Shown: positions 1 through 30,200 of the stretch, piece by piece
Numbering within the stretch: the stretch's first letter is position 1
Layout: every line of letters starts with the position of its first letter
Source of the DNA: an uncultured Candidatus Poseidoniales archaeon
GTDB lineage: Archaea; Thermoplasmatota; Poseidoniia; Poseidoniales; Poseidoniaceae
Direction: 5' to 3'
NCBI GenBank assembly: GCA_964009815.1
Contig: CAXGJQ010000002.1
Span: 1 to 34,758 of the forward strand
DNA length: 34,758 bases
Notes under the pieces: model-generated
Database searches by the model: none
Seen by the model: only the letters and a program-made list of their open reading frames with translations
Told to the model about the DNA's origin: nothing
Position numbers and translations under genes: made by a program

Positions 1-2865
1 GGGTGAAGTGAAGGTCATGTTGTAGGCGCCAAAGGCGGGGTTAATCTCCTCGTAGAGAACAACGGGCTCACCCATGGGGTCGCCGTCGAAGGTGACGTTC
101 TGGCCAAGGACGCGCAAGGAGAAACTCCCAGCCGGAGGCATGAGTTGTGAATCCTGGAAGTGGATGGACCCGCTAAAGCTGAGATTAAAACCGCCACGAA
201 CCCAATCCATGGGGAAGAGTTGCCGACCGGTTTCCTCCCAAACGCGCAGACCGTCCAGTTGGATGTCGTTTTCAACGACAAGTTCCATCTCTGAAGTGGT
301 CCATTGATTGACAGCGACACCAAGGTCATCCTCAACAGAAATAACCGCTTCAGCGCTGCTCTCATCGTCCCAAGACCAATTCACCTTGGTTGGCATCCAA
401 ACAGAAACGACGCCATCGCTATCCTCCATCGAGGTGCAGTTAGCAGCATCGAAGACCACGATGCCCCCTGCGTCTGAATTGACCGTACAAGAATCGCCTC
501 GTAGCCATGTGAAATTGGGGTTGTCGCCGTATCCATGTTCAATGGCAATGACGGCTTTTGTGACATGGTCAACATCGTCCCCGGGAGCGATTCGAGTGAT
601 GAAATTCCTGTACAAGCCATCCGGTGCAGCAAGGCCACCCTCAAAGGAGACACCTACTGCTCTGGTTTGCATCGCGTAAGTGATGTCGATGTTCGAAATC
701 TTCACTCGCCCTGAACTCGCCGCTTTGACAGCGATTGGGATTTGTACCATGCCGTCGCCGTTCTCAGGTATGTGATCGTTAAAGGCATCAATCAAGGTTG
801 GAGCCTTCTTCACGATGGCCCCAATGGGTGAATCGTCTGAAGCAACAACGGAGGATTCATTCAGGAAAATATCCGATTCCCAGTCGTAGGTGCCGTCTGC
901 TCCAACGTCAAGCATAGGCCGGTCTGGATAACCCTCCTCGTATTCGAGGACAAATTGGTCGATGGAGGGGGTGATATCAGCGTTCGTGCTGGTGAAAAAG
1001 GTAGCATAGCGAAGCGTGTTACCGGCTGCATCGGTTGAGAAGCTGGTCTCCTGATTATTACTTGCGTCAAGCCAAGTACTCCCGTTATCGTTGGAAACGA
1101 CGACATTGAGGGTCGTTCCAGAGGGAACATCGGCCGTCCACTGTGGGCGCACCTTTCCGACTTTGGTTCCGGTGTTGAAGAACGGAGAAATCCAATCGCC
1201 GGAGGTTTGGTAATCCGTTGCGTATTCCACATCAACCCACCAAGAAACAGCCGTGGAGCCAATGAGTTGTGCTTTCCAAACCAACTCTTTGCCTGGATAG
1301 TCGAAATGGATGGTCGACTCTGATTCAACTTCTTCCCAGTGGGTTCCGTTGTCGGCGGAGATCCAATAATCCACTCGATCACCAATGGAGGCCGCCGACC
1401 AATACGTCTGAACGTTGGCAGACAGAACATCTTCTCCGGACTCAATCACCTCACCGTACCATGTGGTGGTACCGGGTGCGGGTGTGGTCTCATAGGTCCA
1501 TCCAGTACCAAATTCACGGTAATAGAGCGTGGCCCCTGACCATGTAGAATACCCACAGTCCACCGAAACGAATCGTTCTCCATCAAATTGTAGACCGTAG
1601 CCCAAACGTGAAATTTGTCGTGTGTTGGATTCAGGAATTAAGGCGGATGAGCTGCCGGAAATCGACCACGCTTCAAGTTGATCTCGGTCATTGTAAGGCG
1701 AATCTTCTTGACATCGCATGTAGAACGTTGAGCCGTTCATTTCCAAGCCACGGAGCATTTGCTTTGAGCCACTTCCATAACTTCCACCGCATTCCCAACT
1801 GGAGCCGGAGGCAGAGGTGTAGGAATAGAAATCTTGACCCCGAGTGTATGTCCCAGTTCCATCTCCCGCAAAGTCGTAGGAGTACAGACGGTTCATGGCG
1901 TTGTGCGCCACCCATACCTCACCGGTTTTCCGGTCATAAGCAATGCCGGTGTATTCACCGACAGATGGAGAGATGTCATAGGAATCAATGCAGGTCCACG
2001 TATCGTCTCGAGAGATGTCCATTTCGAGCACTCGGTGATAATTCACAGGAGCGGTGGACCCGTAGGTGTAGCGGTAGGTTGAGAGGATACCAAAGAGGCG
2101 TTCATCGTCGGTAATCGTCCAGTCTCTAAATCCATAGTATCCATAGTAGGATGAAGGGTGTTTTTGAGGCAAGGTGCACGATGCTTGGTCAAGCGTGATG
2201 ACGGATTCACGAGAGGCATTGTTGGGGTACAAGCGCTCAACTACGTTGTGGAATGAGGAAGAAGACCAGGTCGATAAAAACAGCCAATCATGGTGCTTGA
2301 GGATGGCCCCTTGGCTTTGGGCCATGAAACTCGAAGACGTTTTCGTGAGTTGTTGAGAATAAAGTGATTCGGTGGCGTTAGAGGTGTGTGGTTGACGAAG
2401 AGCGTTGGAACCGTTGTCAAGCCAAGCGTCCGAATTTGGATTGATGTAAGCGTCGTTTCCATGCGGTAGGAAATTTTTGCTGATGTTGTCCATGGCGAGG
2501 GTCAAATCTCCAGAGCGATCGTCGACACTGGTCTCTGAACCTCGAATCCAGTGCACTCGGTCGTCCGCGACCACTTGCGACCAACCTGTGGCGGAAGCCC
2601 CGGAGAGGGTCATGCTCACATCGGTGACCAAAGCCCCTCGTGGAAGGGAAACAGAGGCGCCCGTGTCAGGATTAGCACCTTGGTACAGCGCAATGTGTTC
2701 AACTGAACCATCGCTGAATTCGTAGACATGGCGAGTTCCGGCGGCGGCTTCAGCATCGGAGGCGAAAAGTCCCGCCATGGGACTCAGCGGCGTGAAAAAC
2801 ATGATTGAAACCAGGAGAAAAAACACGGCTCGAGCGTTGAACGGTTGCTGTCCGCCTCCTTGCAT
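1..2865 (-). CDS. Large secreted protein of unknown function, partial (N-terminal 955 codons; continues past the left window edge)
   Basis: Missing from the ORF track because it has no stop codon inside the window. I read the minus-strand frame with codons at 1-3, 4-6 and so on. It contains no tta/cta/tca from position 1 up to 2997. The ATG at 2863..2865 gives MQGGGQQPFNARAVFFLLVSIMFFTPLSPMAGLFA/SDAEAAAG, which is a Sec-type signal peptide (basic n-region, hydrophobic core, small residues before the acidic mature end). The rest is acidic, rich in S/T/G/W/Y, and carries N-x-S/T sequons. I recognise no catalytic motif. Every listed minus-strand ORF in this region is in another frame. Confidence 0.8.
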   Translation of the reverse strand, partial: MQGGGQQPFNARAVFFLLVSIMFFTPLSPMAGLFASDAEAAAGTRHVYEFSDGSVEHIALYQGANPDTGASVSLPRGALVTDVSMTLSGASATGWSQVVADDRVHWIRGSETSVDDRSGDLTLAMDNISKNFLPHGNDAYINPNSDAWLDNGSNALRQPHTSNATESLYSQQLTKTSSSFMAQSQGAILKHHDWLFLSTWSSSSFHNVVERLYPNNASRESVITLDQASCTLPQKHPSSYYGYYGFRDWTITDDERLFGILSTYRYTYGSTAPVNYHRVLEMDISRDDTWTCIDSYDISPSVGEYTGIAYDRKTGEVWVAHNAMNRLYSYDFAGDGTGTYTRGQDFYSYTSASGSSWECGGSYGSGSKQMLRGLEMNGSTFYMRCQEDSPYNDRDQLEAWSISGSSSALIPESNTRQISRLGYGLQFDGERFVSVDCGYSTWSGATLYYREFGTGWTYETTPAPGTTTWYGEVIESGEDVLSANVQTYWSAASIGDRVDYWISADNGTHWEEVESESTIHFDYPGKELVWKAQLIGSTAVSWWVDVEYATDYQTSGDWISPFFNTGTKVGKVRPQWTADVPSGTTLNVVVSNDNGSTWLDASNNQETSFSTDAAGNTLRYATFFTSTNADITPSIDQFVLEYEEGYPDRPMLDVGADGTYDWESDIFLNESSVVASDDSPIGAIVKKAPTLIDAFNDHIPENGDGMVQIPIAVKAASSGRVKISNIDITYAMQTRAVGVSFEGGLAAPDGLYRNFITRIAPGDDVDHVTKAVIAIEHGYGDNPNFTWLRGDSCTVNSDAGGIVVFDAANCTSMEDSDGVVSVWMPTKVNWSWDDESSAEAVISVEDDLGVAVNQWTTSEMELVVENDIQLDGLRVWEETGRQLFPMDWVRGGFNLSFSGSIHFQDSQLMPPAGSFSLRVLGQNVTFDGDPMGEPVVLYEEINPAFGAYNMTFTSP

Positions 2866-8863: not shown

Positions 8864-9676
8864 ATGACGATGACCATCACGCACTTGGGTACCGGCAGTC
8901 GAGGAAACTCGACCTTGCTCGAAACACCACACGCGAAGGTCTTGATCGACCAAGGATTCAGCGGCACTCAATTGGCCAAGCGCCTTGCACGGCTGGAATT
9001 GAGCCCAGATGACATCGACTGCGTGTTCATTTCCCACCACCACGGCGACCATGGTGGAGGAGCAAAAGTTGTTCAGAAAAAATGGAACATTCCGGTCCTG
9101 GCCAACGAACGAACAGCCCTTGAACTCGATTTAGTCCCGGAACTAACCACGTATTTTGAATCACTGGATTTGGTTCGAGTTGGGCAAGATTTGGCAGTCC
9201 TTCCAGTCCCAGTACCTCACGCTGGTTCGGAAAACGTGGCTTTTGTCGCTAGCCACGAAGGCGAACGCGCCGCCATCATAACCGATTTGGGTTCATGGAC
9301 CGACGAACTGGTGACACATGTTCGCGGCTGTGAACACATTTCGATTGAAGCCAATTACGACCACAACAAACTCATGTTCGGCCCATACCCCTATTCCCTC
9401 AAGGACCGTATTTCGGGTCGTGGGGGACACTTGTCAAACGAGCAGACCGGACGCTTTCTAGCAGAAGTCTGCACGGAGGCAACCCGAAGCATCACGTTGA
9501 CGCACTTGAGCGAAAAGAACAATCTCCCTCACCTTGCAGAATCTACCGTGCTCTACTTCATCGATGAAGTCTTTAGTGGAGACCTACGAATCTCAGCACA
9601 AAATGGACCCGATTTTTCACACTACATCGGACAAGACAAGGCCACATCCAAGGAAGAGAAAGCCCCCGCCAAATGA
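8864..9676 (+). CDS. MBL-fold metallo-hydrolase (YycJ/PhnP-like beta-lactamase-fold protein)
   Basis: 270 aa. Has the HxHxDH metal-binding signature in FISHHHGDHGGG. The N-terminal ITHLGTGSRGNSTLLE strand-loop and the C-terminal GGHLSNEQ motif are typical of this subfamily. It is the first gene of a plus-strand run, 32 nt upstream of the pilin-like genes. Confidence 0.85.
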   Translation: MTMTITHLGTGSRGNSTLLETPHAKVLIDQGFSGTQLAKRLARLELSPDDIDCVFISHHHGDHGGGAKVVQKKWNIPVLANERTALELDLVPELTTYFESLDLVRVGQDLAVLPVPVPHAGSENVAFVASHEGERAAIITDLGSWTDELVTHVRGCEHISIEANYDHNKLMFGPYPYSLKDRISGRGGHLSNEQTGRFLAEVCTEATRSITLTHLSEKNNLPHLAESTVLYFIDEVFSGDLRISAQNGPDFSHYIGQDKATSKEEKAPAK

Positions 9677-9708
9677 ACGCTACCGGCCAGTTCAAGGTCA
9701 ATGGCTAA

Positions 9709-10794
9709 ATGATACGAGGTTGTGTCAACCTTGTGAACCGCCACACCATCCAGTTTGCGCCTCATCGCCGGCGCGATGATGAGCGGGCTGTAAGCGAGGT
9801 GCTGGGGGTTGTCATGCTCTTGGCCATGGTCATCACCATCATGGGTGGAGTATGGGTCTTCCTCAACCCTTACCTGTCCGATTTTGAAGACAACACCAAC
9901 TGGAACTCTGCAACCGGGCTCGCTGACCGAATCGAGGACAGGATAGAAGTCGCAGGCAATGCCCCAGAAGACACCGGGTTCCGCAACACCTTGGCCATCC
10001 AATCCACGGCGATTCGCTCGGTCCAAAACGTCGAACATTGGACGATAAGCGCTGATTTGACCGACGGAGACCGCATCAACTTGAGGCACGTGAACGAGAC
10101 CACCATCGGCGTTTTGTCCTCAAATGAAACAGCACGCAGCATAACGGTGCAATCTCCAGATGTGCTCGTCGAGCGACAAATCACGGTGAGCCACTTGGAG
10201 GTCTTCATCACGCACAACGCCAGTTCATCCCATTGGATGATCATCACCGTATACGACGCCGACAATGAACCCATTCATCGACAAGTTATGTGGACCCTTT
10301 CTGGATTGCAAATCACTACATCGCTGGGCCAAGGTGAACATCAAATCGTCCTCATGAACAACGCCCGTGCTGAGCGATTCCCAAATGAAGCATGGGAGGT
10401 GAGTGCGATGCCACTGGTTGAATTCGACCGCATGGCCAACGATGAATTGCGGCTCTCGATGCTGCTCACCGATGTGGAAGCCAATGGAAGCATCGGATCT
10501 GGTTCCAACGTGGGCATGCAGTTTGTGTCACAAGGCCCACTTACCCTGTTTACAGGCCGAGCTTACAACGTGAATTTCAATGTCTTCAACGCTCTCCATG
10601 ATGTGATTACCCCGCAATACCACAACAACTGGCTTTCAGATTACACCATTCAGCGTTCTGCCGGAACCCTCGACACCTACATCGGATTCTCGCCCTATGA
10701 ACGAGCCAGTGGAGCGGATGGTTTCAGCGTCTCCAGCCAAAACTTACCCCTTTACTTTGAAGTTGACATTCAACGCGTGGAGGTCAGCCGATGA
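9709..10794 (+). CDS. Archaeal type IV pilin-like protein with class III signal peptide (361 aa), function unknown
   Basis: The N-terminus ...HRRRDDERA/VSEVLGVVMLLAMVITIMGGVWVFL matches the archaeal pilin N-terminal pattern (charged segment, R-A, then a hydrophobic helix of about 25 residues). The remainder looks beta-rich and extracellular, with sequons NET, NAS and NGS. The unusually long 26-aa pre-segment leaves the exact start uncertain (an in-frame GTG lies at 9733). Confidence 0.65.
   Translation: MIRGCVNLVNRHTIQFAPHRRRDDERAVSEVLGVVMLLAMVITIMGGVWVFLNPYLSDFEDNTNWNSATGLADRIEDRIEVAGNAPEDTGFRNTLAIQSTAIRSVQNVEHWTISADLTDGDRINLRHVNETTIGVLSSNETARSITVQSPDVLVERQITVSHLEVFITHNASSSHWMIITVYDADNEPIHRQVMWTLSGLQITTSLGQGEHQIVLMNNARAERFPNEAWEVSAMPLVEFDRMANDELRLSMLLTDVEANGSIGSGSNVGMQFVSQGPLTLFTGRAYNVNFNVFNALHDVITPQYHNNWLSDYTIQRSAGTLDTYIGFSPYERASGADGFSVSSQNLPLYFEVDIQRVEVSR
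10779..10784 (+). promoter_or_regulatory. Shine-Dalgarno-like GGAGGT, 6 nt upstream of the second pilin-like gene
   Basis: gtGGAGGTcagccgATG. It is complementary to the conserved 3' end of 16S rRNA. The start codon overlaps the upstream stop (ATGA). Confidence 0.6.
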
Positions 10795-13025
10795 GAGGAA
10801 CATTGCGAAGGGACGAAGACGGCGTTTCGGCCGCCGTCGCCACCGTGTTATTGTTCGGGGGCGTATTGTCAATCATTGGGCTGATGATGGTCTCTATGAT
10901 GCCGGTCATTGAAGAGATGGAAGGCTCGGTTGAACGGCATGACATGTCGTCGCAGATGACGCTTCTTGCCCATGAAACAGCCTCCCTCAGTGAACGGGGC
11001 ATGCCAGGAGACAGTGCTCACGCTACGCTCATTCCCGTTGACGGCGAGCTCGTGTGGGACAGTCTGCGGGGAGGAATGTGGTACTCGGCAACATGGGCAG
11101 AGGACATGAGCTTGCGGGCACGAGGTGCTCTTGATTTTGATGACCAGCTCGAAATACGCCATCCTGAAAGTTTCGTTGAGGCAGTCTGCATAACCGATTT
11201 ACGACTTGGCCCTGACCGCCCTTACTACTACACCCTCGAGTCCGCACTTGACAAAGTGAGCATAACCGTAACGCCGGGGCTAGCCATGCCACTTGGCCCG
11301 ATTGAAGTTGAACTGAACGAAGACGGGAGCGAACTATTGACCACTTCACTGCGAGTCGATGAGATGACGACCATTGACCTCAGCACCTACGGCACGACAA
11401 CCCTCGCATCGAGCCATGCTTTGACCGTGTTTGGGCACATCGGAGAAGAAGGGGCCACCTACGTATTGCCCAATTCCCCTGAACCTTCGGACAAGCGAGG
11501 TCATGCATGGTCCATCCCATTGACCTCAGGGAGTAGCACGCTCCACTTGCTGAGCGATGTGGCCAACCAAATTCACATCTCAATCGACGGTTCAACCACC
11601 ATTCATTATGCAACACCGAGCGGCCTAGCAAGAACCGGTGTTGCCTTCACTCACAGCATCACGGTTGACGAAAGTACCGTCGCCCACATCACGACAAGTG
11701 CACCTGCACGCCTTCTGCTCAAAGCCAATGCAACTGGGGAGGCCGGTTTGACGGCATGGCCATCCTCAAACGGCGCCTACCTCGGCCATTCCTTCCTACC
11801 ACCAAGCGTGAACGGCACCCTTCGCTTTGCCAACCCCGGTGAAAGCGTTGTCACGCTCACCTGGAGGGGTGGTGGGATTTCGGTGGCTGCAGGTGGTGTT
11901 GAGCACGTGAGTTGGCCTCCAGTCACCGGTGATGAGGCACCCACCATCGACGCCGACGGAGATGTATTCTTGACGTGGTCGGCATCAACCAATGCGACCA
12001 CAACCGACGCTTCATCAGGCACTACATTCGTAGCAGCCGATGATACAGGAGCAATGTCGGGTGGTGTGTTTTCCTATGCGAATTTGGAGAACGATACAAC
12101 CGAGAGCCTGCTCGTTCGATTGGCAGGATACACCTCAACATGGAACATGAGTGGAGCATCCGAGGCATCTGGGACCTTCCTTGAGGCGACCGACCACCGG
12201 ACCATCATCCTCGGCGAAGGAACCAGCACGCTCCGAGTTGAATCAGGCCACCCTCTACGAGCCCTCCGGCTTGGTGGAGACAGCGGTCTAATCCACCTCC
12301 CACACGATGGCGTTGATCGATGCACCAGCGTGTCCACACAAGCCAGTGGCTGGATCACGACCGACCTTCCCTGGCAAGGGATGGGGGGGCGAGGTGAAAT
12401 CGACACCCAGCAGGCTTGGGTGGAAGGCCGACATCCATCCAGTGTGAGCATTGATGTGTTGGGCAGCGACGGTATTTCTTCGCACAGCTCCATCGGAACC
12501 GTTTGGGCCTTCCATCTGTCCAGGCTGTCCTATCAGTTTTCCTCGTCCATTGACGGCATGGAGGTGGCCTTCAGTGGTGGAGCGGTCGTCACCAATCACC
12601 CTGAATTCAAACCCTACGTCGTCATCCCACCGTCGGACCGAGGCGGCCCTGGACCCCGGTTTGCTGCCACGATTCCTTCCCTCCACCCCACTGCCTCGAG
12701 CGAAAGCGGGGCCGGTGAGTTAGAACTTGATATTGAAATGGTTCATCGGACTTCCTTGGCATCAACTCCAGCCTACGAAGTGCGACGTGGATGGTCGGAG
12801 CCTTACGGGACGGCCATTGCGAATGAAGCCGGAATCGGCCTCGAAGCGAGCGAAGATTGGACCATTTACCCTGGACGATTGGACTTGCTTACAGACTATG
12901 TCGGCTGGGTGCCTGACCCAAGCTACGGTACTTCAGAAGCCGTTTGGCACACCAACGGTGAAGTGATTGAATTTACCTTGCAATTGGCATCGCTTGACGT
13001 CACCACACGGGAGGTATTGGTATGA
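10791..13025 (+). CDS. Large archaeal type IV pilin-like protein with class III signal peptide (744 aa), function unknown
   Basis: N-terminus MRGTLRRDEDG/VSAAVATVLLFGGVLSIIGLMMVSMMPVI. The start overlaps the upstream stop as ATGA (10791..10794). GGAGGT lies 6 nt upstream. It is far larger than structural pilins, and the soluble part is S/T/G-rich with several N-x-S/T sequons. Confidence 0.65.
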   Translation: MRGTLRRDEDGVSAAVATVLLFGGVLSIIGLMMVSMMPVIEEMEGSVERHDMSSQMTLLAHETASLSERGMPGDSAHATLIPVDGELVWDSLRGGMWYSATWAEDMSLRARGALDFDDQLEIRHPESFVEAVCITDLRLGPDRPYYYTLESALDKVSITVTPGLAMPLGPIEVELNEDGSELLTTSLRVDEMTTIDLSTYGTTTLASSHALTVFGHIGEEGATYVLPNSPEPSDKRGHAWSIPLTSGSSTLHLLSDVANQIHISIDGSTTIHYATPSGLARTGVAFTHSITVDESTVAHITTSAPARLLLKANATGEAGLTAWPSSNGAYLGHSFLPPSVNGTLRFANPGESVVTLTWRGGGISVAAGGVEHVSWPPVTGDEAPTIDADGDVFLTWSASTNATTTDASSGTTFVAADDTGAMSGGVFSYANLENDTTESLLVRLAGYTSTWNMSGASEASGTFLEATDHRTIILGEGTSTLRVESGHPLRALRLGGDSGLIHLPHDGVDRCTSVSTQASGWITTDLPWQGMGGRGEIDTQQAWVEGRHPSSVSIDVLGSDGISSHSSIGTVWAFHLSRLSYQFSSSIDGMEVAFSGGAVVTNHPEFKPYVVIPPSDRGGPGPRFAATIPSLHPTASSESGAGELELDIEMVHRTSLASTPAYEVRRGWSEPYGTAIANEAGIGLEASEDWTIYPGRLDLLTDYVGWVPDPSYGTSEAVWHTNGEVIEFTLQLASLDVTTREVLV
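13009..13015 (+). promoter_or_regulatory. Shine-Dalgarno-like GGGAGGT, 6 nt upstream of the third pilin-like gene
   Basis: acGGGAGGTattggtATG. The spacing and core are the same as at 10779. The start codon overlaps the upstream stop (ATGA). Confidence 0.6.
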
Positions 13026-13501
13026 AGCGTCAACACCTCACCAACGACACCAGAGCCGCAGCGACCGAACTCGGCTACATCTTCACGTTCTTGCTGGGAG
13101 TCCTCCTGATGAGCATGTTCAGCGTTTGGGCATGGGACATCGAGACCAACACACGACTTCGATGGAACGAGGAGGCCATTCAGGCCAACATGGACGACAT
13201 TGCTGCCGCCGTGGAGCGGGCTGACGAGGCAAGTCGTTTGGGAGGGAATGTCTCTTATGCCGAAGAAATTGCTTGGCGGCCTACTGAAGCCGATGAGTCC
13301 CTCTTCTGGCTCGAACTTCATGAGACATCGTTGATATTAATCGATGAAGGGGGGCCATTGGACACCGAAATTTCCCTCTCCGGCACAGGTTCAGGGACGC
13401 ATGAGGGCAGAGTCCCGCTGGCGGGGGTTGAACGGATTTGGGTTGTCCATGATGATGGCATGACGTTCTTGTCACTTGACCGGCCGCAAGCCGTCCAATG
13501 A
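13022..13501 (+). CDS. Small archaeal type IV pilin-like protein with class III signal peptide (159 aa)
   Basis: N-terminus MKRQHLTNDTRA/AATELGYIFTFLLGVLLMSMFSVWAW. The start overlaps the upstream stop as ATGA (13022..13025). GGGAGGT lies 6 nt upstream. Its size is typical of minor pilins or FlaF/FlaG-like accessory proteins. Confidence 0.6.
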   Translation: MKRQHLTNDTRAAATELGYIFTFLLGVLLMSMFSVWAWDIETNTRLRWNEEAIQANMDDIAAAVERADEASRLGGNVSYAEEIAWRPTEADESLFWLELHETSLILIDEGGPLDTEISLSGTGSGTHEGRVPLAGVERIWVVHDDGMTFLSLDRPQAVQ

Positions 13502-16027
13502 TCAGCGACTCATGACTGCACGGTGCACCATGGTCTGAACTTCCCGCATCCGGGCCTTGGCGCCCAGTTCTCGGAAGACCGTCAATGCCCGCTGAAGGTA
13601 TTCCATGCGACCTTGTTTGTCGGGAGCGACGCCTCCAAGGCGGGTGAGCAACTCACCAATCTGCATTCGCAAGTCGTTGGCTTCTGCCAAGACCAAGGCT
13701 TGACCGTAGTGCTCAACCGCTTCATCAGTCCGTCCAGCATCATGAAGCACCTCACCGAGGAGCATGGTAATTTCAACCAGGGATTGGACGTCACCCGCTT
13801 CGTTCATCGCTTCAAGGGCTTCCGTGTAGTGGAAAAGCGCCAATTCAGACTGCTCCACCTTGGAATAGTAACGACCGAGCACGGATTGGGCTCTTGCATG
13901 CAGTACCGCATCGCCGAGGGCTGACGTTCGCTCGTGAGAGGCCATGGCATGCTCTCTCGCCCGTTCAACCTCTCCAAGTTCAATCAGCGAACGAGCAAGG
14001 GTGATTTGACTGTAAATCAACTCATCATCAGTCGACCCCTCAAGGATTGCTTCGACCTCACCGTAGGCCTCAAGCGCTTTGTTTCGTTCGTTTTTTCGTC
14101 GCAGAAGGTAGCCGATGTTGTTGTACGTTCGAGCCGCCCAACGAGCATGTCCGAGTGAAATGTAGTGCTTGAGGGCAGATTTGTGGCGAGTCAATGAAAG
14201 CTCGCTATTCCCTTGCTTGCGGCTTACATCAGCCAGCGAAGACAAGATTTCAGCCTGAATCAGATCATCTGAATTTTTCTTCGCTAATTCAAGGGTGTTG
14301 TTGAGCAGTTCCTCGGCTTCCTCAAGACGCCCAAGGAGGGCGAGAATATCGCCTTGAAGTTGGGCCATTCGGATGATAACAACCGCCTCCAGGTCCTTTG
14401 TTTCAATTTGCTCAATCAATCCGAGGAGTTCCATATAACCCTGTGAAATCAGTTGTCGTCCTTCTTTGACCACCAGAGCGGAGGCCTCCTCAAACTGGCT
14501 TGACTTGATGGAGTGGTAAACCAATTCAATCAGCATATCATGCGATGATGTTTGTTTTTGATACCATTCAACGCACTTTGCGTGGAACTCTTCTCGCAGC
14601 GCCGTCGAGAGGCTACGGAGAAGAAACTCTCGAATGAGATCGTGAACGTCATAGGTTTCTGCATCGGCTTGACGAGCGAGTCCGGACTCTACCAGACTGT
14701 CCAATTCATCGGTGTTGAGTTTCTGTTGTGCCAAGGCTTCCAAGTGAACGGGCTCTCTAAAAATGGAAAGAGCGGAGAGTACCCGCTTCTGTTCCGCACT
14801 CAGCTTAGAGAAGATTTCAACGGTGACATAATTTTCCAATGTCTCGTGAAAAGCCCCGGCTGAGGCTCCACGGTTAATCAATTCCAACACGAGAGGATGG
14901 CCTCTGGAAAGACCGTGGATGTGGAGCCATTGTTCGTCTTCCATGGATTCAAAACTGGTGAGTAATTTTCTCCCAGATTCAGGATCAAGACCGTCAAGTG
15001 GCAGGACAAGGCTCGCAATTCGACCTTCGGCGTCTTTGGTGGGTACGACGGGTTTGAACGACCGTGAAAAGAGGACAAGACCAATCTTTTCTTCACTTCC
15101 AAGAAGGGCGAGTGACATCGCTTGGAAAGTTTGGTGAAGAACCATGTCAGAGACCTTGTGGAAATCGTCGATCACCAGCAAGGATGGAGTCCCTTCCAAC
15201 GCTTCGACCAAGAGGCGAGCTGCATCGGCCGGTTGGGGAACCGGGGTTGCGGCAAGATAGGTCGAGAATTCGGCATTGCCCATGCTCGAGAGCCAATCCG
15301 CAACGGATTCAAAGAACGAACGAGAACCTTCCCAGTCTTGACAGCGGTGATACAACAAGTTCCGACGATGCATGAATCGCTCAATCAATTTCGAGGCAAC
15401 CGTTGTTTTTCCAATGCCAGCAATTCCTGGGACCAGAAGGGTCGTCGCCCGTGCCTCAATGAGGTTCACCATGTTGTCCAGTTCGGTCGTTCGGCCGTAG
15501 AAATGTCGGAGTCGCGGGAGGTCAGCCAGCGAAGTGACAAGTTGCTTTTCAACATGCTTTGACAAGTCGCGCTCAACCAAATCCGCCGTCAAGTTCCTCA
15601 CATCAAGGCAGTTGTTATCATCGATGTAACGGATGATGTCAACCGGTCGCATTTCGAACGGAAGCACGCCTTTGGCACCACCCAATGTGGTCGAGACCGC
15701 CGGCTGTTCGTCCAAGATGCAGCGAACGGGTAAATCGGCAAGGCGCTCCCATGTTTCATTGGCGAGAATTACGCCACTGTCGGTCAAGAAGTAGGCCTTG
15801 CGTTTCCTAGAAACGCCTTTCACGTGGGCTTGGCGCTCAACAAGAATGCCTTGGTCTTTCAGTCCTGCAATGGCCCTCGGTACGTTCGAGCGGGCGATGG
15901 CGACCGCATTGGCAATGCCCATTTGGGAAAGGGCAAAGGGCACCTCAATGCTATCCTTGAAGTCGGAATAATCCAACAAATGGAGCAGGATCCGTTCCTG
16001 CACGCCTGGTTTTGCCTGTGCGGCCAT
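13502..16027 (-). CDS. STAND-like signal-transduction ATPase: N-terminal winged-HTH, P-loop NTPase, C-terminal TPR array (putative transcriptional regulator)
   Basis: 841 aa. Residues 1-100 look like a wHTH (MGIANAVAIARSNVPRAIAGLKDQGILVERQ). FYGRTTELDNM precedes Walker A at LLVPGIAGIGKTTV (15404..15427). Walker B is LLVIDDFH. The C-terminal ~300 aa consist of amphipathic A/L/E/Y-rich 34-residue-type repeats (for example ARTYNNIGYLLRRKNERNKALEAY and ALFHYTEALEAMNEAGD). Confidence 0.75.
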   Translation of the reverse strand: MAAQAKPGVQERILLHLLDYSDFKDSIEVPFALSQMGIANAVAIARSNVPRAIAGLKDQGILVERQAHVKGVSRKRKAYFLTDSGVILANETWERLADLPVRCILDEQPAVSTTLGGAKGVLPFEMRPVDIIRYIDDNNCLDVRNLTADLVERDLSKHVEKQLVTSLADLPRLRHFYGRTTELDNMVNLIEARATTLLVPGIAGIGKTTVASKLIERFMHRRNLLYHRCQDWEGSRSFFESVADWLSSMGNAEFSTYLAATPVPQPADAARLLVEALEGTPSLLVIDDFHKVSDMVLHQTFQAMSLALLGSEEKIGLVLFSRSFKPVVPTKDAEGRIASLVLPLDGLDPESGRKLLTSFESMEDEQWLHIHGLSRGHPLVLELINRGASAGAFHETLENYVTVEIFSKLSAEQKRVLSALSIFREPVHLEALAQQKLNTDELDSLVESGLARQADAETYDVHDLIREFLLRSLSTALREEFHAKCVEWYQKQTSSHDMLIELVYHSIKSSQFEEASALVVKEGRQLISQGYMELLGLIEQIETKDLEAVVIIRMAQLQGDILALLGRLEEAEELLNNTLELAKKNSDDLIQAEILSSLADVSRKQGNSELSLTRHKSALKHYISLGHARWAARTYNNIGYLLRRKNERNKALEAYGEVEAILEGSTDDELIYSQITLARSLIELGEVERAREHAMASHERTSALGDAVLHARAQSVLGRYYSKVEQSELALFHYTEALEAMNEAGDVQSLVEITMLLGEVLHDAGRTDEAVEHYGQALVLAEANDLRMQIGELLTRLGGVAPDKQGRMEYLQRALTVFRELGAKARMREVQTMVHRAVMSR

Positions 16028-21900: not shown

Positions 21901-24900
21901 TCAGAACTTGGTTCCGCCTCGGCTACGAGCAGTGCGAACTCCACCGTAGACCACGAGAATGGCCAACAGTGCGATGAGGAGTGTCATCCAAATCGATTCA
22001 CCATCGGCGGTGGATTCGATGTTGTATTCCAAAGCGAAGTCATCATCCGAAGGCTTCGATTCTACGCTGTTCGCTTCCGCTCCCGCCACTTCAACTCGAT
22101 AGTCAAAGCGCTGGTTGCCTTGCATAAAGGTGAGTCCCTCAAAGACGGCGACACCTTCTCCACCGGCTGGAACAGCGATGGATTGGGAAAGTTCAGCGCC
22201 GTTCGGAGGCGTGAGGTAAACAATCACTGAAGGAGCGTCAAGCAAACCTTCGTTCACGATAGGAACACGCACAGCACCGACCTTATCGGCGATGAGGTCA
22301 GATTCAGTGGCAATGCGAGCCGTGTCCAAGGTGAGATAGATCGTGGCCTTCTTGATGCTCACTTCGACTTCTTGACGTTCAACGTTTTCATCCTGGCTGT
22401 TGACGTAGACGGTGAGGTCAAAGTCGCCTTCCGTAAAGGACTCTGGAGCAAAGACGGTGAACTGTTGTGTTCGCGTCTCACCCTTGTTAAGGGTCAACGT
22501 CGAAGCCATCGGCGTGACGGACCAGTCCTCGGGGATGCCGCTTTCAAGCAATTCAATGGTAAAGGTGTCCTGTCCGTTTCCATCGTTGGTCAACGCAAAG
22601 GAGAACTGACGCTCAACCAGGGCAGACATGCCCAATTCCTCAGTAGCATCCGATACGGTGAAACCGAACGATTGTGGAACAAACACCTTGACAGAGCCTT
22701 GAGATGATTCTCCCAAGTCCGTCTCGAGACGCAACGTCATACGGTGGCCGTTGGTGAGATGCCAAGCATCTGCGACGTCAGGCAGCGTGATTTGCACCTT
22801 CACGGTCGTACTGAGTACGGCCTCTGTTGAATTATCACCAATTCCAAGAGCCACGTTGATGGTGTCCTCGTAAGCACCTTGGCCATCATCAGCCGAGGCG
22901 TTCCAAAACTGAACATTCCATAGGTCTGAATCTTGAGCCAAGCCCATCTCGCCCTCGACTGAGAAGATATCCATCGTCTCGGTTCCGTTGTAAACCACTT
23001 CGTAATCAAACGTAATGACCGAGTAAACCGATTCGTTGGATGAGGAAACAATCGCCTCAATTTCACCATCTACGGCGTTGAGCAGTGTACCATCCGTCAA
23101 GGAATCAGCACTGAATGAGATATCAAGGGCTGAGTTGACGCGGCGGTTGAAGTTCAACGTGGCAGAGATGGTTGAGTCAGCGTTGATGGTGGTCGTTTGG
23201 CCACCAAAGTATTCCATTTCGAGTTGAGAACTGTGTTGAACGGTCATGAACTCACCATCAAACGAAACACCGCCTTCAGGGAAGAGTTCCCGGAGTTGAC
23301 CAGAGGCAGGTACATCCATCATCCAAGCCATGTCATCAAAGGTGACCTCAAGCTCGACGGCCTCTTGAATCATGGAGAAACCATCGCTATCAGCACCAGC
23401 ATGGTGCTCATTTTGCTCAATGTCAGTCCAAGCCGTTGCGAGTTCAACGAATCCACCAAGGGCCATGGTCATGCTGATGTTGCCGCCGTTAGCGACGCTC
23501 GCATCAAGCAATCCAACAGCAACTCCTCCACCATTCGGTCCAAGGTTGGTTTGGGAAACCACAACGACCCATTCACCGGGTTGGACACTTGCCGACCATT
23601 CAAGGGTAGTACCGTTCATCGTACCACTTACTTCAACTGGCTCTCGTTCAACACCGGCGACGGGGTAAAGCACAATGCTTGCACCAACAAGCCGGTCAGC
23701 ATCAAGTTGGTCAGTAACCGTACCTTCTGCATCGACCAAACCAGCGGTCACCTCTATGTCAGTGGAATCAGGACTGTCGTGGACGGTGTATCCGGTTTGG
23801 TTGACGGTCTCGTAGTACACGGTCTCAAATCCTTCTTTCTCAACGGTCACGTTGTAGACATCACGGATTGGAACAAAGACTCGCCAGACTCCTTCATCAT
23901 CGGTGGCCACCGTGGTGGAGAATTCAGAGTTGTTGTCGCCAACAATCGTGACGTTCATCCCTGGCAGACCTTCACCGAAGCTTGGCACACTGTTGTTGTC
24001 AAGGTCCCAGTAGACCTTACCACCAATTTCGACTTCCAAGACCGCGTAAACGGGATCCAAGGTAAGGGAATTGTTCTCATCGGCGAGGTCGGTGGTGAAT
24101 GGAGCATCACTGGTGTCCATGAACCATGATTTCGTTCCAATGGTACGATTGAAGTAGAAACTCCATGTTCCCGGCATCAGTAGCTCTGTTGAGTTCCCTT
24201 CTGCATCGGTTCGGTCAAAGGTGATGTTGCCAAATCCATCATGGCTCACCGCAGTGACCGTCATGTCGCTCAGTGGCGACTCGGTCACGGCTTCCAACAA
24301 TTGCATAGAAACCTCTACGCTGAGGCTTGTGGTCATGTTAAGATTCAATCGGTCTGAGTTTGCATCAACCGTGAGGGGTTGGCGCAGCGTCTCCGTATTG
24401 TCACCGTTGGCGAACGGAGCCACAATGACCAACCACTCACCTGCAGGCACATAGGCGGCGAAACTACCGTTCTCATCTGACCCCAAATTGAACCATTCAT
24501 CATCGGCTTCGTTGTAGAGCAAGAACTCGTTGGCAATACCTTCGTTGGTGGTGTTAAAGAGCGTACCAGAAACAAGGTAGGTGTTCTTCAATGCCACGTC
24601 TACTGGGTCTTCGATGGCATCGAGACTGATGCGAATCGCATCGAAGAACTGCTCACCGACCAAGTCGTAATCTGTGGCGTTCTCATCACTGGCTGCCGTT
24701 CGGTTGAACACGAGGTCATAGCCACCGGGTGTCAAAGACACAGTGATGATTCCTGGTTCAGTGTAGTCTTCGGCCGTGTAGTAAATGCTGTCTTGGTTTT
24801 CATCGATTGGCCTCAGGCTGAAGGCAGGAGTGGCCATGGTTCCATTCTCAAAGGTGCCGTCCTCGGCAGCGTTGAGGTAAACATGCATTACCACATCGAT

Positions 24901-27273
24901 GGCTTCTGGCTCTGCGATGAGTTCAATCGATGAAAGTGGCTCAGTATTTGAGCGATTGATGACCAAGTCCTCAACCGTTGAAACGTTGAGGCGTTCGTCG
25001 GAAACGGTCAGGTCCCATACTCCGTTGGGAAGGTCGAGGGCGAACTCTCCAAACTCGTTAGCGATGGTGGTCCATATCAAACCTGCATCGTTTGTAGCGA
25101 TGATTTCAGGAGCCTCCCACATCGGGAAACTTGAATCCCATCGGGTGCTGTTCTCGTAGAGGTGAACCACTCCGTTAAGGAGGGTGGTAGGTTGAATGTA
25201 GAGCATTCCAAGGTCAGTGTCTGTGCCCGTCTCAACGGCCACAAGGGCCCCGTATCCGCGATTGGTGACAACGCTCTCGGTGGTCAGGTGGTATGTGAAA
25301 CCGGAGGGAACACGCACGGAGAAGTATCCCGTGAGATTGGTGACCGCAGCGAACTCAAGATTGTCTGAAACAAAGTTCACGGTCAAGCCATTCGCTGGTT
25401 GCGTGGTTTGTTCTCGGTTTTCTTCCGGTGTTTCATCGTACCAGGTGTTCCATTCCTCAACCGTGACGCCGGGGTAGTTTCGCATTGAACCGTTGATGTA
25501 AGCGGCTTGAGCATAGGTGACGTCCTTAGCAAGGTCCTCAGTACCGGGCACAAGTTCGATTTGGTCGAAGAGCACGAACTCAGGGTTCACATCGTCGCGA
25601 ATGTCCCAAACACCGAACAGAAGTTCAGCATACAAGTCTCCATTTTCATCGCTTGTGACGTTGATTGGGTCGAGCAAGTCAATTTCGTTTTGGAACGTAA
25701 TGGTCCGGTTTGCCACATCAAAGAGCGGTTCTTGTGTCAATGGGTCCACCGGTGAAACAAGGGTCAAAGTGACGTCCACTGTGTCGGGCACATTGAGGTC
25801 CAACGTGATGTTGGTTGTGTCCGTAATGACAAAGATGGACTCGTTAAAGTCGTACCATCCGTCGTTGTCAACGTCCCCGCGGTAGTAGTAGTCTCCTGGC
25901 GGGATTGGGCCGTAAGAGAAGTTCCCATCTTCATCGGTTGGAATCATAACGGCAAACTCTTCGCCAAGGTCAACATCAACAAATTCAATGGTTTGGTTTG
26001 CCATTGCATCGCCGTGCATGTCCTTGAGGGTGTCCTTGAAAATGGCACCAGGCATGGTCATGGCAAGATCGTAAGTTGGGTCAATACCGATTTCAACCGG
26101 GTCTGGCAAAAGAACTTCCTTTCCATTAGCGAGCTGAGCAATCATGTTGTAGGTACCAGGAAGAAGACCCGTCTTGTAGAACGAACCAGGTTCAACCATT
26201 GGGCCAGAGAAGGTTCCAACACCGATGAACAATCCGGTTCCGTTGAACGTTCCAGTTCCTTCGAACAATCCTGCACCTTCAAGGGTTTCACCCTGTCCAG
26301 CATCGGCATCACCGTAGGTCCGGCTGAGCGTCGATGTGCCTTCTGAAGTGAAGGTACCCATGGCGTCAACCGTGCCTTCAAGGCGATAGGTTGGTGTGTC
26401 ACCGCTGTCATCGATGAGACAGAAGGTTTCATTCACCGGCATCACGGGATTGGATTGATTATCTGAATCACAAGCAACCACGTCTGATGGTTCCACCCAA
26501 GAGGCTTCAAGCACACCGTTTCCGGACCAAGTGCCGTTGGCAGAGAAGGAGCGCTCGTTGCCAATATCACGGGTAAATTCGCCAATGAAATTGCTGGCAA
26601 GGGCAATGCCTTCGCTGTCAAAGGAGCCATTCTCCACCAGTGTAGCTTCACCGGTTCCTTGGAGGATTCGTGATTCATCTGATGTGAACGAACCACTCGT
26701 GGTTTCGACGGTGTAGTTGTCGGTCATGGACCAAATGTTTCGCAAGATGAAGGTTGTTTCAGCGATAGGTTCGCCGTTGAATTCTTCGTCTCCGGACCAC
26801 ACGACGGTACCCGAAACACCGCTGCTGTCAACGGTTATGTCGAGTTCGTCATCCATGTCGACCATGCGGTTTGCTTCGTCGGCAGTGATGTTGAGTTGAG
26901 ATTCACCCAACCACGTCATGTTGGCAACTTCGCCCAACAAAGCGGTGATTTCGTTGACGACTCGGTCATCGTTGGTTTCGGTTAGGATATCGCTGAGTCG
27001 CTCACCATAGGAACCGTCGCGGATGTTATCTCGTGCGACCGTAGGGTCAAAATCACCTGCAAAGGCGGACACACGAATGCGGCCTGCTGGGGCGAGGAAA
27101 TCGTAATTTCCTTCTTCATCAGCGTCAACGAATCCAATAGGGACCCAGTAAGTGTCCTCATCAAGGTCTTCGCTGCCTTCACCGGAGAAAGCATCGCGCT
27201 CAATCAACAATCGGACACCAGAGAGCCCTTCTCCGTTATCGCCCATGGTTACTTGACCGGTCAATTCTGCACC
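21901..27273 (-). other. C-terminal ~1,790-aa extracellular extension of the AglB protein: array of CarboxypepD_reg/Ig-like modules, CARDB/NEW3-like modules, terminal TM anchor
   Basis: At least nine recurrences of the D-x-x-G-x-(F/Y)...P-x-G-x-(Y/W) beta-sandwich signature: DEEGNYDFLAPAGRIRV, TDEDGNFSYGPIPPGDYYY, SDENGDLYAELLFGVWDI, NLTGYFSVRVPSGFTYHL, NEFGEFALDLPNGVWDLTV, SDENGSFAAYVPAGEWLVIV, TDAEGNSTELLMPGTWSFYF and TDDEGVWRVFVPIRDVYNVTV. CARDB-like segments are FSFALTNDGNGQDTFTIELL...GETRTQQFTVFAP and VRVPIVNEGLLDAPSVIVYL. The terminal helix WMTLLIALLAILVVYGGV lies at 21937..21990, followed by RTARSRGGTKF. Confidence 0.65.
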
Positions 27274-30200
27274 GGGGTAGTACTTCAGAATCTTCACGAG
27301 GGTATTCGTTGATTGAATTTGGTCTTCAGGAGCTTCACTGTACCAGTTGGCGATGACAAAGTGGTTCATCATGGCACCAGGCAGGGGCAGAGCGTTGGTC
27401 AAAATCGTACCAGGCGATCCGGATTGTCCGAAATGCTGTGATGGTTGAGGGTTGCTGGAACCGGCATCGAGTCCGAGGGTGGACGCACCATAGCCGACGT
27501 AGGTCCTTGCCACCATCGTGTCAAAGAAGGCAGGATTGTGGTCAACACGGACGTCCTCGATTTGGAGCATATCAATGTCAGCACCAGCCTGTTGGTTGAG
27601 GAAATCCTTCTGCATTGCATCGTCAACCTCTTCTCGAGTCATCTCATCTTGGAAGTCTCCACGAACGGTTTCGTAAACTTCGTTCATGTATGTGGTGATG
27701 TCCTGTCCTGCCAAGATGGTCGGTGCACCAAAGATACCCATGGGTTGACCACGGTTGTAATTGGAGTCCGCCGTGTATCGACCGGCGCGAGGGTAAAGTC
27801 GGTCGTCGATGGCGAAGTAGCGAATATCGTGGTCTCGAGTGATGGTTTCACCAGGAGCACCTTCGTAATCTTGCACCTTGTAGGGGCTGTTAAGATTGAT
27901 GAGGTCGTTGTAGAGGTCGTGGATGTTGTAGACGGGGTGGGCATCCATTGCAGATGTGAGAAGTTGCGTTGCCAAGGCCAAACGGGCGTTCTTTCGGTGG
28001 ATGGACGTCGACACTGAGAGGTACTCATCCAACAAATCATCGGTATACCAGTACTCACCAATGATGGTGTGGCTGCGACCTTCAACGGTTTCTTCAGACG
28101 TTCGCACGTTGTTGTTGAAGGTGATGTCGGCTTGCTCCATTGAGCTCCAAGCATCACCCTCACAGGAATTGGAGAGGGCATCAGTGCAGGGAATCGCTTC
28201 ACCGTCTTTGTAAATCTTGTAGACCTTGTTGTCGTCAAAGATACCGGCGACATGGGTGTATCCTTCGGCCATGACCACGTTTCGATTTGACTTGACCACG
28301 TTGAATGAGCGCTCTTCAATGAATTCAATCATCGACTCATCAAAGGTGAGTTGCATGGTGTTGAATTCAGCCAGTTGGTCGTCGTCAAGGTACTTGTCCA
28401 TGACGTTCATGAAAGGTTCCGTGAATTGATGATTTACGCCTTCAGTAGCGTAGGCTCGGTCGCCTTCTGAAAGTTGCCAGATGAACATGGCTGTCAAGTC
28501 ATCCTGGTTGCGTGCAAGAAGCATGTTCCCTGTGGCAGGGATACCTGACTGGAAGTTGTCTGAAACCGATGGGTGTTCGCCGGTGGCCAGTGCTTGGAAA
28601 CCATAGTCCCACCATGAGACAAAGGCAGGTTTCTCTGAATACGCCATATCAGCGTCCTGATTCGCCAACCAGTCGTAGGCCGCATTCCAGCCGTTGTCGT
28701 TGAAGGACGAACCGAAGCTACCCAAATACCGACGTCCATCGTACGTACTGCTGTCAAGAATCGAAAAGCCAAGTCCGTCGAAACGAAGGATATCGGGCAT
28801 GATGTTGTAGATCTTCTCATCAATTTCGCTTTCTTGGTTGGAGGTGCCGGGGATGGCCGAGTCCAAACCGTAGGTGGCTTGTTGCCCGAAAATCATGATC
28901 ATCACGAGGAAGACCGCAGAGAATTGCGGTGTACGCCATACGGCTTTGCGAGCACCGGAGATGCGGTCAGCCGGCGTGCGAATACCGAATTTCTTCCACG
29001 AACGAACCAAGCGACCCCAATCAGCCCACTTCCAGAACGCCATGATTCCAGCCGCTCCAAGAATGGCCATGATGGGCGTAGCGTTGAACATGAAACGAGC
29101 AGCGTTCCAAGCCATGAACGTGGCTGCAAAGACCCAGACACCAAACACCAAAGCGGTGCCATTTCGATGCCGAAGACCTCGCCAAAGAAGTCCGCCGCCC
29201 ATGATGAGAGCGAGCAAAAACGTGATCGGTCCAAAGGAGGCGAAGAGTTGAGCACGGTTCGGTGCATTCGCTTCAGCAACCGTGCCGAAAATCTTGGTCT
29301 TGGTGAAGTAGCCGCTGCCGGTGAACAGGACATCCCAGGCGTTGGAAAGTTCCAACGTCTTGAGGACGTAAAGGATGGCAAAGAAGACGGTAGCAACGGC
29401 GGTGAGTGTGCCGAGAACGAGCAACCAAGGCTTGTCTCGGAAACCGGTTGTCACGTAGGCAATGGCCAGCGTGAATCCAAAGATGAACAAGAAGGGTTGC
29501 AGTCCTGTTGGGTCAAACACCAAATTGAATTGCGGGTGTGCATAGAATGGTAGAACCATCAACAAAATGGTGGTCAACATCACGAGGAACATCACGCTCA
29601 AGGTGGTTGAATCACGGCGGCGGAACATGTTCAGGGCCACTTGCAGGGCGTAAGCCAAGAAGAGGATCGAAGGACCGACGACGAACCCTTTCCATCCGAG
29701 GGCGACGATTCCAAACGCGACACCAGCAAGGGCCGCGTTCGCCATGGCAGCTTGTCGATGCTGGGCAACGTCGTTGAAAGCACGCACAAAGGACATCGGG
29801 TGAGCCGATGTTGTCTTGGTTATGCGAGCTGAGCCGGCATACTTGACCGCACGGAGCCAGTACATGAAACCGATCGAGATGAACAACATCACGAAGGCAT
29901 CGTGGTCAGCCAGAGCCCACGTGGAGTGGGTGACGTGAGCAGGCATGAAGGCGATGAGCCAGGCAGCCAGAACGCCAGCGCCTTTGCCGAAGTGGTCCTT
30001 GGCCATGATGGCGATGGGGAACACGGTCAAAGCTCCGTAGATGGCTGGTAGAGCAAGCATGCTCCACCAAACCGCATCTTCGGGATTTGAGAGGAAGGGT
30101 TCCAACACCATAGCACCAATGGCCATCGACCAGGTGAAGAGCGGGGGACGTGGGTTGATGCCGCCGACTGGATAGAACCGGTCGGCGTCAAACACCAGGT

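Follow-up and report, generated by a model that had tools for sequence, protein, structure and literature searches.

We analysed a 34,758-nt stretch of DNA from an uncultured archaeon of the family Poseidoniaceae (order Candidatus Poseidoniales), referred to here as the window, in which three consecutive genes, designated P1, P2 and P3, encode pilin-like proteins of 361, 744 and 159 amino acids (aa). The open reading frames (ORFs) and the signals at their junctions, listed below, agreed exactly in place and size with the three coupled ORFs, the ATGA overlaps and the GGAGGT sites that an earlier sequence-only reading of this DNA had described.

9709-10794, plus strand: P1 ORF, 361 aa, type IV pilin-like
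10779-10784, plus strand: Shine-Dalgarno sequence GGAGGT of P2, 6 nt 5' of the ATG
10791-10794, plus strand: ATGA overlap of P1 and P2
10791-13025, plus strand: P2 ORF, 744 aa, pilin-like, proposed head
13010-13015, plus strand: Shine-Dalgarno sequence GGAGGT of P3, 6 nt 5' of the ATG
13022-13025, plus strand: ATGA overlap of P2 and P3
13022-13501, plus strand: P3 ORF, 159 aa, pilin-like, best conserved of the trio

Both junctions were conserved when related loci were compared. A 4-nt overlap of P1 and P2 was found in 72 of 73 loci, while P2 and P3 overlapped by 4 nt in 65/73 and by 1 nt in 6/73, and a Shine-Dalgarno-like GGAG or GAGG preceded P2 in 68 and P3 in 66 of the same 73 loci. The gene structure of the trio is established by these observations and its translational coupling, which had been proposed from the window, is real and conserved.

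Each of the three proteins contains one hydrophobic stretch, which is N-terminal and lies behind a charged leader of 27 aa in P1, 11 aa in P2 and 12 aa in P3. The corresponding segments are as follows.

9709-9789, plus strand: P1 leader (aa 1-27), cleavage predicted after A27
9790-9864, plus strand: P1 conserved hydrophobic helix (aa 28-52)
10791-10823, plus strand: P2 leader (aa 1-11), cleavage predicted after G11
10824-10901, plus strand: P2 hydrophobic helix (from aa 12), inside a modelled helix of aa 9-69
13022-13057, plus strand: P3 leader (aa 1-12)
13058-13135, plus strand: P3 conserved helix AATELGYIFTFLLGV (aa 13-38), followed by a small globular domain

Alignments of orthologues (P1, n = 44; P2, n = 33 plus 11; P3, n = 32) revealed that the leader is the least conserved part of P1, P2 and P3 alike and that near-invariance sets in abruptly behind an A or G, with VSEVLGV in P1 (VSEVLGVVMLLAMVITIMGG), VSAAVATV in P2 (VSAAVATVLLFGGV) and AATELGY in P3 (AATELGYIFTFLLGV). 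The hydrophobic helix that starts there is approximately 25 residues long in each protein, and the arrangement of leader, A/G and helix is also kept in a locus from the family Thalassarchaeaceae (MGIIb). A disposable leader, a small residue at position -1 and a conserved hydrophobic mature N-terminus are together the hallmark of prepilin-type processing and the opposite of what a Sec signal presents. All three proteins thus have the class III layout of a charged leader, G/A at -1 and a hydrophobic segment of at least 20 aa, and the class III, type IV pilin-like N-termini claimed by the sequence-only reading were supported by the variable leaders, by the onset of conservation at the predicted cleavage site and by profile matches of P1. 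The strict FlaFind core expression was fitted by P2 alone (DGVSAA, aa 10); in P1 (RAVSEV) and P3 (RAAATE) one of the six core positions is occupied by an E.

Profile searches with the P1 orthologues returned Pilin_N and DUF7289 in 44/44 sequences at E<=0.1 (best Pilin_N E value, 1e-4), TIGR02537 in 38/44 (best 3.7e-4) and UpsA in 21/44. Many P1 orthologues also carry a precomputed match to PF23960 (DUF7289), N-terminal only, which in some cases passes the cut-off. The P1 profile aligned DERAVSEVLGVVMLLAMVIT to DEERAVSPVIGVILMVAITVI, which is N-terminal in Natrinema PilA2, a pilin of solved structure (8gi2), with an E value of 0.2. The P2 protein of the window scored 18.8 bits against positions 2-70 of the DUF7289 profile, which is below the cut-off of 27, and six of 11 diverse P2 orthologues matched the same family, again at the N-terminus only (best E, 5.8e-7). 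A second family, DUF7266 (PF23928), was matched by P1 of the window at 17.8 bits (cut-off 27.6) and by nine of the 32 P3 orthologues (best E, 9.8e-4), P3 of the window not being among them, and neither P2 nor P3 of the window gave a Pilin_N or TIGR02537 match. Similarity to pilin N-terminal profiles thus appears good for P1, partial for P2 and weak for P3, and P3 is the member of the trio with the weakest pilin evidence. A TadE/Flp-like reading of P3, considered on the basis of its AATELGY motif, was rejected when none of the 32 orthologues matched TadE.

When the family profiles were compared with hhalign, P1 and P2 had 42 N-terminal columns in common and nothing beyond, and P1 and P3 had nothing significant in common. 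On this basis, paralogy among the ectodomains was not detected. A similarity between P1 and P2 that is limited to the N-terminus is as expected for pilins with different heads.

The ectodomains were modelled with AlphaFold2 (AF2). The P1 model (mean predicted local distance difference test score, pLDDT, 78.5) contained a helix at aa 25-52 and a second at aa 65-83, followed by Ig-like beta-sandwich domains. In the P2 model (predicted template modelling score, pTM, 0.67) the long helix of aa 9-69 led into an all-beta region with pLDDT of about 90, and values for aa 583-744 were below 50 and mostly below 35. Both models suggest a "lollipop" in which a long N-terminal helix precedes beta-sandwich domains. 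From the model and the alignment together P2 was divided into two parts.

11040-12542, plus strand: P2 variable all-beta region (aa 84-584; AF2 and alignment)
12516-13022, plus strand: P2 highly conserved C-terminal domain (aa 576-744; alignment)

The C-terminal domain is the best conserved segment of the P2 ectodomain, with TNHPE, RRGWxxPYG and DYxGWVP motifs and several invariant His, Trp and Gly residues, and may represent an unrecognised fold or a domain that becomes ordered only with a partner. Residues C133 and C511 of P2 are also invariant. The middle regions of P1 and P2 are variable, as in exposed surface proteins, and these are the fastest-evolving genes of the surrounding island, with 29-42% identity across families compared to 48-63% for the neighbouring metallo-beta-lactamase (MBL) fold and STAND genes. 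Foldseek comparison of the P2 model with the PDB gave 20 matches at E<=1e-3, all of them partial, to beta-sandwich, carbohydrate-binding module (CBM), jelly-roll, cupin and phage-tail structures with a template modelling (TM) score of about 0.1, and no match to the P1 model was found at the same threshold. Because the partial matches (TM about 0.1-0.2 overall, the Ig-like matches of P1 included) are generic, the fold assignment is limited to "beta-sandwich". Searches of PDB sequences with the profiles of all three families returned nothing significant, the top match being the PilA2 N-terminus already described. No member of the trio matched an enzyme in Pfam, NCBIfam or PDB sequences and the structural matches were of generic beta-sandwich or CBM-like type, so that the option of a pilin-anchored enzyme set, raised in the sequence-only reading, was not upheld.

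Homologues of P1, P2 and P3 originated from Candidatus Poseidoniales, also known as Marine Group II (MGII), the closest genomes being MED790 and SAT1329 (both MGIIa). A profile search with the P2 alignment against 1.84 billion representative proteins gave 132 matches and approximately 13 full-length clusters, all of 682-768 aa and none with a different architecture, and every P2 cluster that could be traced belonged to the order, with no relatives outside it. Since the full-length clusters include Thalassarchaeaceae and MGIIa.1 members at 31-35% identity, the P2 family is order-wide. When species-representative genomes were scanned with a pattern, 348 of them contained relatives. We fetched 91 loci (L001-L091) and retained 80 at species level, with P2 identities of 51-95%. 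The gene order and orientation of the island were the same in 80/80 of these loci and in Thalassarchaeaceae, MGIIa.1 and other divergent loci, the island of about 30 kb (window positions 1-31464) being syntenic in both families of the order at P2 identities down to approximately 32%. The trio was present in every Poseidoniales lineage sampled. A tblastn search of plasmids with the N-terminal region of P1, aimed at annotated haloarchaeal DUF7289 loci, gave no match. The trio is a new, lineage-restricted set of families within a known class, the archaeal class III/type IV pilin-like proteins.

One of the fetched loci (L015, NZEQ01000036.1) was a 72-kb contig labelled "Verrucomicrobiales bacterium ARS100" that contained a complete MGII island with 78-93% protein identity. 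This contig is almost certainly a mis-binned Poseidoniales contig.

Immediately before P1 the window contains a hydrolase gene and a short conserved DNA motif.

8864-9676, plus strand: MBL-fold hydrolase gene, cytoplasmic product with no signal sequence (Pfam Lactamase_B_2, 1.4e-15; Lactamase_B, 3.2e-15)
9695-9708, plus strand: motif AGGTCAATGGCTAA, abutting the P1 ATG, with a Shine-Dalgarno-like AGGT(C/G)A about 9-10 nt 5' of the start

The MBL gene ends 32 nt 5' of P1 on the same strand, and the two genes were adjacent in every locus that extends this far upstream, those of MGIIb included, with a gap that ranged from 21 to more than 300 nt. The protein of the window is 48-63% identical to those of the most divergent lineages. 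The MBL gene is thus a conserved neighbour that may be co-transcribed with the trio. The AGGTCAATGGCTAA motif was near-identical at the DNA level among Poseidoniaceae loci whose proteins are merely 57-95% identical. Species-specific GC hairpins, for example CACCCCCCTATGGGGGGGTG, lie between the MBL stop codon and this motif (window 9677-9708; loci L001 and L066) and are a possible terminator or attenuator. A 3-codon upstream ORF in the window, ATGGCTAAATGA, which ends on the P1 start codon, was discarded as it was not conserved in loci L045 and L056.

Precomputed annotation placed MBL orthologues in the Anti-Pycsar Apyc1 family (PF23023), and a weak match to PADLOC MBL models was also seen. 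The idea of a defence island was rejected when PADLOC analysis of the MBL, STAND, S8 and P1-P3 proteins gave no meaningful defence system.

The trio lies among genes for surface proteins. From left to right the window contains two giant genes on the minus strand, the second TSP3-like, then MBL-P1-P2-P3 on the plus strand, an HTH-STAND-TPR gene, a beta-helix gene, an S8 subtilase gene, an STT3/AglB gene and purD, all on the minus strand, and finally a CARDB gene on the plus strand. Details of the neighbours are given below.

1-2865, minus strand: giant ORF, incomplete at the left end of the window and longer than 955 aa, with no Pfam match, enclosing small listed ORFs at 861-1445 and 1608-2114
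Minus strand: TSP3-like giant protein, 1941 aa
13502-16027, minus strand: HTH, STAND NTPase and TPR regulator (Pfam AAA_16, TPR_12, HTH_Crp_2, TPR_MalT), convergent to P3
Minus strand: beta-helix protein, 1484 aa
Minus strand: S8 subtilase
21901-31464, minus strand: STT3/AglB fusion, 3187 aa, with its core at aa ~390-990, CarboxypepD_reg/NOMO-like beta-sandwich repeats and a C-terminal transmembrane segment
32986-34758, plus strand: CARDB-domain secreted protein with a Sec signal, running past the right end

We read the ORF at the left end as another giant surface protein. The STAND-TPR gene is a candidate regulator and, being syntenic in all loci, a conserved neighbour. The P3 stop codon TGA (13499-13501) touches the stop codon (13502-13504) of this convergent gene with a spacer of 0 nt, and because the stops abut there is no room for separate terminators. 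The giant secreted neighbours of the trio carry no C-terminal anchor.

Giant AglB equivalents of 2800-3250 aa, unusually large for AglB, were found at the corresponding place in loci of MGIIa and MGIIb. The sequence-only reading had treated AglB as the neighbour of the trio and had proposed that it glycosylates all three proteins. The gene is not adjoining, as it lies 8.4 kb downstream with three other genes between, and the second proposal is supported for P1 only. N-X-S/T sequons numbered 4 in P1 (4.0 expected), 5 in P2 (2.8 expected) and 2 in P3 (0.7 expected), which is not a clear enrichment. Two sequons of P1 were conserved, N139 in 41/44 and N259 in 37/44 sequences, and glycosylation of P1 is plausible from this conservation. 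The case is weak for P2, where the single conserved sequon (N452) is confined to close relatives, and the proposal is not supported for P3, in which no sequon was conserved.

No type IV pilus ATPase, platform protein or prepilin peptidase is encoded in the window, which bears out the reported lack of PilB/FlaI, PilC/FlaJ and peptidase genes, and no canonical type IV pilus or archaellum gene cluster was found in the window or within +/-10 kb of the 80 species-level, the MGIIb and the MGIIa.1 loci. Archaeal pilin genes outside type IV pilus operons are common (Makarova et al. 2016, PMC4858521). A FlaHIJ archaellum-like operon has been reported elsewhere in MGIIa genomes. Among metagenome-assembled genomes (MAGs), Tully et al. 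recorded flaK in 83/92 from MGIIa and 26/158 from MGIIb, and flaB/flaH in 79/92 from MGIIa versus 41-46/158 from MGIIb (PMC6336850, Suppl. Data 10), while Rinke et al. reported an archaellum operon from every Poseidoniaceae genus and from half of those in Thalassarchaeaceae and read it as adhesive (PMC6461757). Because flaK and flaB/flaH are reported in most MGIIa MAGs, the trio of this MGIIa organism is an orphan at the level of the locus only; the description of the operon as orphan was correct for the locus and does not extend to the lineage. The MGIIb carriers of the trio fall outside the flagellum table of Tully et al., the one traceable MAG (TMED85/NHEM02) being absent from it and the others being newer MAGs. 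A literature search found nothing on DUF7289 or DUF7266, on MGII and class III signals, or on MGII and prepilin peptidase.

The explanation we favour, and hold to be somewhat better than an even bet, is that the trio is co-translated and forms a complex, minor-pilin-like or adhesin in kind, with P2 at its head and with leaders that are cut by a FlaK/PibD-type peptidase. Three class III members with unrelated ectodomains would be made in fixed proportion from one coupled mRNA. A prepilin peptidase of this type, encoded elsewhere, would cleave the leaders after the conserved A/G at the predicted sites, and the three mature N-terminal helices would then pack into a minor-pilin-like (pseudopilin-like) heterocomplex. 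Such a complex could be carried on, sit at the base of, or prime the filament of the archaellum-like FlaH/I/J system, which is the only type IV pilus-type machinery reported for the lineage, or it might instead stay as a short membrane-rooted stalk or stub. P2 would be the exposed head, consisting of a variable CBM/jelly-roll-like beta stack and the strongly conserved C-terminal domain, and would most likely mediate adhesion to particles or algal polymers, with P1 and P3 as adaptors. On this view the trio would have a tip or minor-pilin role, as the sequence-only reading had put forward.

Several observations weigh against this explanation. The -2 position has no consistent K/R and is acidic in P2. 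P1 of the window falls just below the curated cut-offs of all three relevant profiles (DUF7289, 25.9 bits with a cut-off of 27; Pilin_N, 19.9 with 25.2; TIGR02537, 16 with 20), and its matches cover the N-terminal part of the profiles only, positions 1-58 of 238 in DUF7289. P3 has almost no profile support, with no match to NCBIfam pilin families. AF2 gave no confident model of P2 aa 576-744, where the ectodomain is most conserved. None of the 91 fetched loci had an ATPase, platform or peptidase gene within 10 kb, and for part of the order it is doubtful that the trio depends on archaellum machinery, because it is present in Thalassarchaeaceae, where flaK was recorded in only 26 of the 158 MAGs.

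The main rival, to which we give distinctly less credence though it is a possible reading, is that the trio is an envelope complex rooted in the membrane, does not become a filament at any time and uses its pilin-like helices, cleaved or not, as permanent anchors, after the model of ArlF/ArlG or the Sulfolobus bindosome proteins. It would act independently of a pilus ATPase as a pseudo-periplasmic scaffold that organises or tethers the giant secreted neighbours (TSP3-like, beta-helix) or an S-layer-like coat. The setting of the trio speaks for this, as the island in which it lies, which encodes giant secreted proteins, a subtilase and AglB, is syntenic throughout the order, assembly machinery is nearby in no locus, and the trio occurs in MGIIb, where most MAGs have no annotated flaK, flaB or flaH. 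The trio is also a single-copy, universally conserved module of fixed length whereas the usual pilin sets are variable, the giant neighbours lack an anchor of their own, and the conserved C-terminal domain of P2 could serve for docking. However, the sharp A/G boundary behind a variable leader, seen even in MGIIb, argues that a prepilin-type peptidase does act, the low flaK counts could be explained by incomplete MAGs and divergent peptidases, and no similarity to ArlF/ArlG or substrate-binding proteins was found in Pfam or NCBIfam. A more specific form, which we regard as doubtful, is a universal Poseidoniales three-helix "pseudopilus stub" without a pilus ATPase, on which the P2 C-terminal domain docks the giant adhesins or coat. 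If true, the stub would function even in the many MGIIb lineages without archaellum genes or annotated FlaK, and the most abundant archaea of the plankton would put the type IV pilin scaffold to a new use that needs no assembly machine.

Three further readings were weighed and each is considerably less probable. That one or more of the proteins are major subunits of a new Poseidoniales-specific filament is improbable; stand-alone pilin genes outside type IV pilus operons often encode major pilins (Makarova et al., PMC4858521) and P3 is pilin-sized and highly conserved, but the 1:1:1-type coupling of proteins of 361, 744 and 159 aa and the absence of tandem duplication are unlike major pilins, P1 and P2 far exceed known archaeal major pilins in size, and the P1 family is only weakly like PilA/UpsA and archaellin past the first ~30 residues. 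We consider it very unlikely that the trio consists of ordinary Sec signal-anchor (type II membrane) or Sec-cleaved secreted proteins whose likeness to pilins is coincidental. The sub-threshold scores of the window proteins, the lack of profile support for P3 and the 27-aa leader of P1, which is long for a class III signal, would fit such a reading; against it, conservation is highest in the hydrophobic segment and lowest in the leader, the reverse of a cleaved Sec signal, DERAVSEVLGV of P1 matches the solved haloarchaeal pilin 8gi2, Pilin_N was matched by every P1 orthologue, and the same layout is common to three consecutive coupled genes with unrelated ectodomains. An active site could in principle be made up of the TNHPE and RRGW motifs and invariant His residues of the P2 C-terminal domain, and yet a set of extracellular, pilin-anchored enzymes in which P2 is a hydrolase is extremely unlikely given that the searches of Pfam, NCBIfam and PDB sequences returned no enzyme and that the Foldseek matches, at TM ~0.1, were to non-catalytic beta-sandwich/CBM-type modules.

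MGII are the most abundant archaea of surface oceans and are uncultured, and their attachment to particles and algae has so far been argued from gene content, namely the archaellum operon, thrombospondin-like proteins and flotillin. The trio is a conserved, previously unannotated pilin-like surface set among giant adhesin-like genes and is a concrete candidate for part of an MGII surface apparatus, either the adhesive tip or the anchor.

Among known systems, the archaeal type IV pilins (Pilin_N/TIGR02537; haloarchaeal PilA, Natrinema PilA2 8gi2, Sulfolobus UpsA) have the same leader, A/G and conserved helix as the trio and, judged from the P1 and P2 models, a beta-sandwich ectodomain behind a protruding helix. 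They differ in that the trio proteins are larger by a factor of 2-5, have ectodomains of several domains without relation to known pilins, and are encoded by three different coupled genes rather than by a single or tandem major pilin gene, with PilB/PilC not nearby. The best-scoring Pfam families were the haloarchaeal DUF7289 (PF23960), matched by the N-termini of P1 and P2, and DUF7266 (PF23928), matched by some P3 and P1 orthologues. Because only the first 58-70 of 238 positions of DUF7289 are matched, the trio ectodomains are not homologous to that family at this sensitivity.

The bacterial minor-pilin and pseudopilin priming and tip complexes, such as GspH-I-J-K of the type II secretion system and FimU-PilVWX with PilY1 of type IVa pili, and the modular pilins PilB/PilC of Streptococcus sanguinis offer a functional analogy only. 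In these complexes several co-expressed pilin-like proteins come from one operon and one much larger member caps or decorates the fibre. GspK lacks E5 and P2 is likewise without an early acidic residue, while P1 has E at +3 and P3 at +4, a likeness that is again by analogy only. There is no homology in sequence or fold, the trio having beta-sandwiches in place of the bacterial alpha-beta roll, and secretin and assembly genes are not adjacent to the trio. The archaellum stators ArlF/ArlG (FlaF/FlaG) and the class III sugar-binding proteins of the Sulfolobus bindosome are cases where a pilin-like helix anchors an ectodomain that forms no filament, and they combine an N-terminal pilin-like helix with a beta-sandwich or functional ectodomain as the trio does. 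One P1 orthologue has been named "FlaG/FlaF family flagellin" by JGI; neither P1-P3 nor their orthologues matched an ArlF/ArlG or binding-protein profile in Pfam or NCBIfam, and archaellum genes are absent from the locus.

The EpdA, EpdB and EpdC proteins of Methanococcus maripaludis are non-identical class III minor pilins needed beside the major pilin, and large pilin-like proteins of archaeal type IV pilus loci have been proposed as minor pilins or adhesins (Makarova et al. 2016, PMC4858521). Like the trio, they comprise several class III proteins that differ from one another. They differ in setting, as the Epd-type sets lie in or near type IV pilus loci whereas the trio is Poseidoniales-restricted and lies in an island of surface-protein and glycosylation genes. 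Many lineage-specific families of archaeal class III proteins are known, often encoded apart from their machinery, and the trio is another such set.

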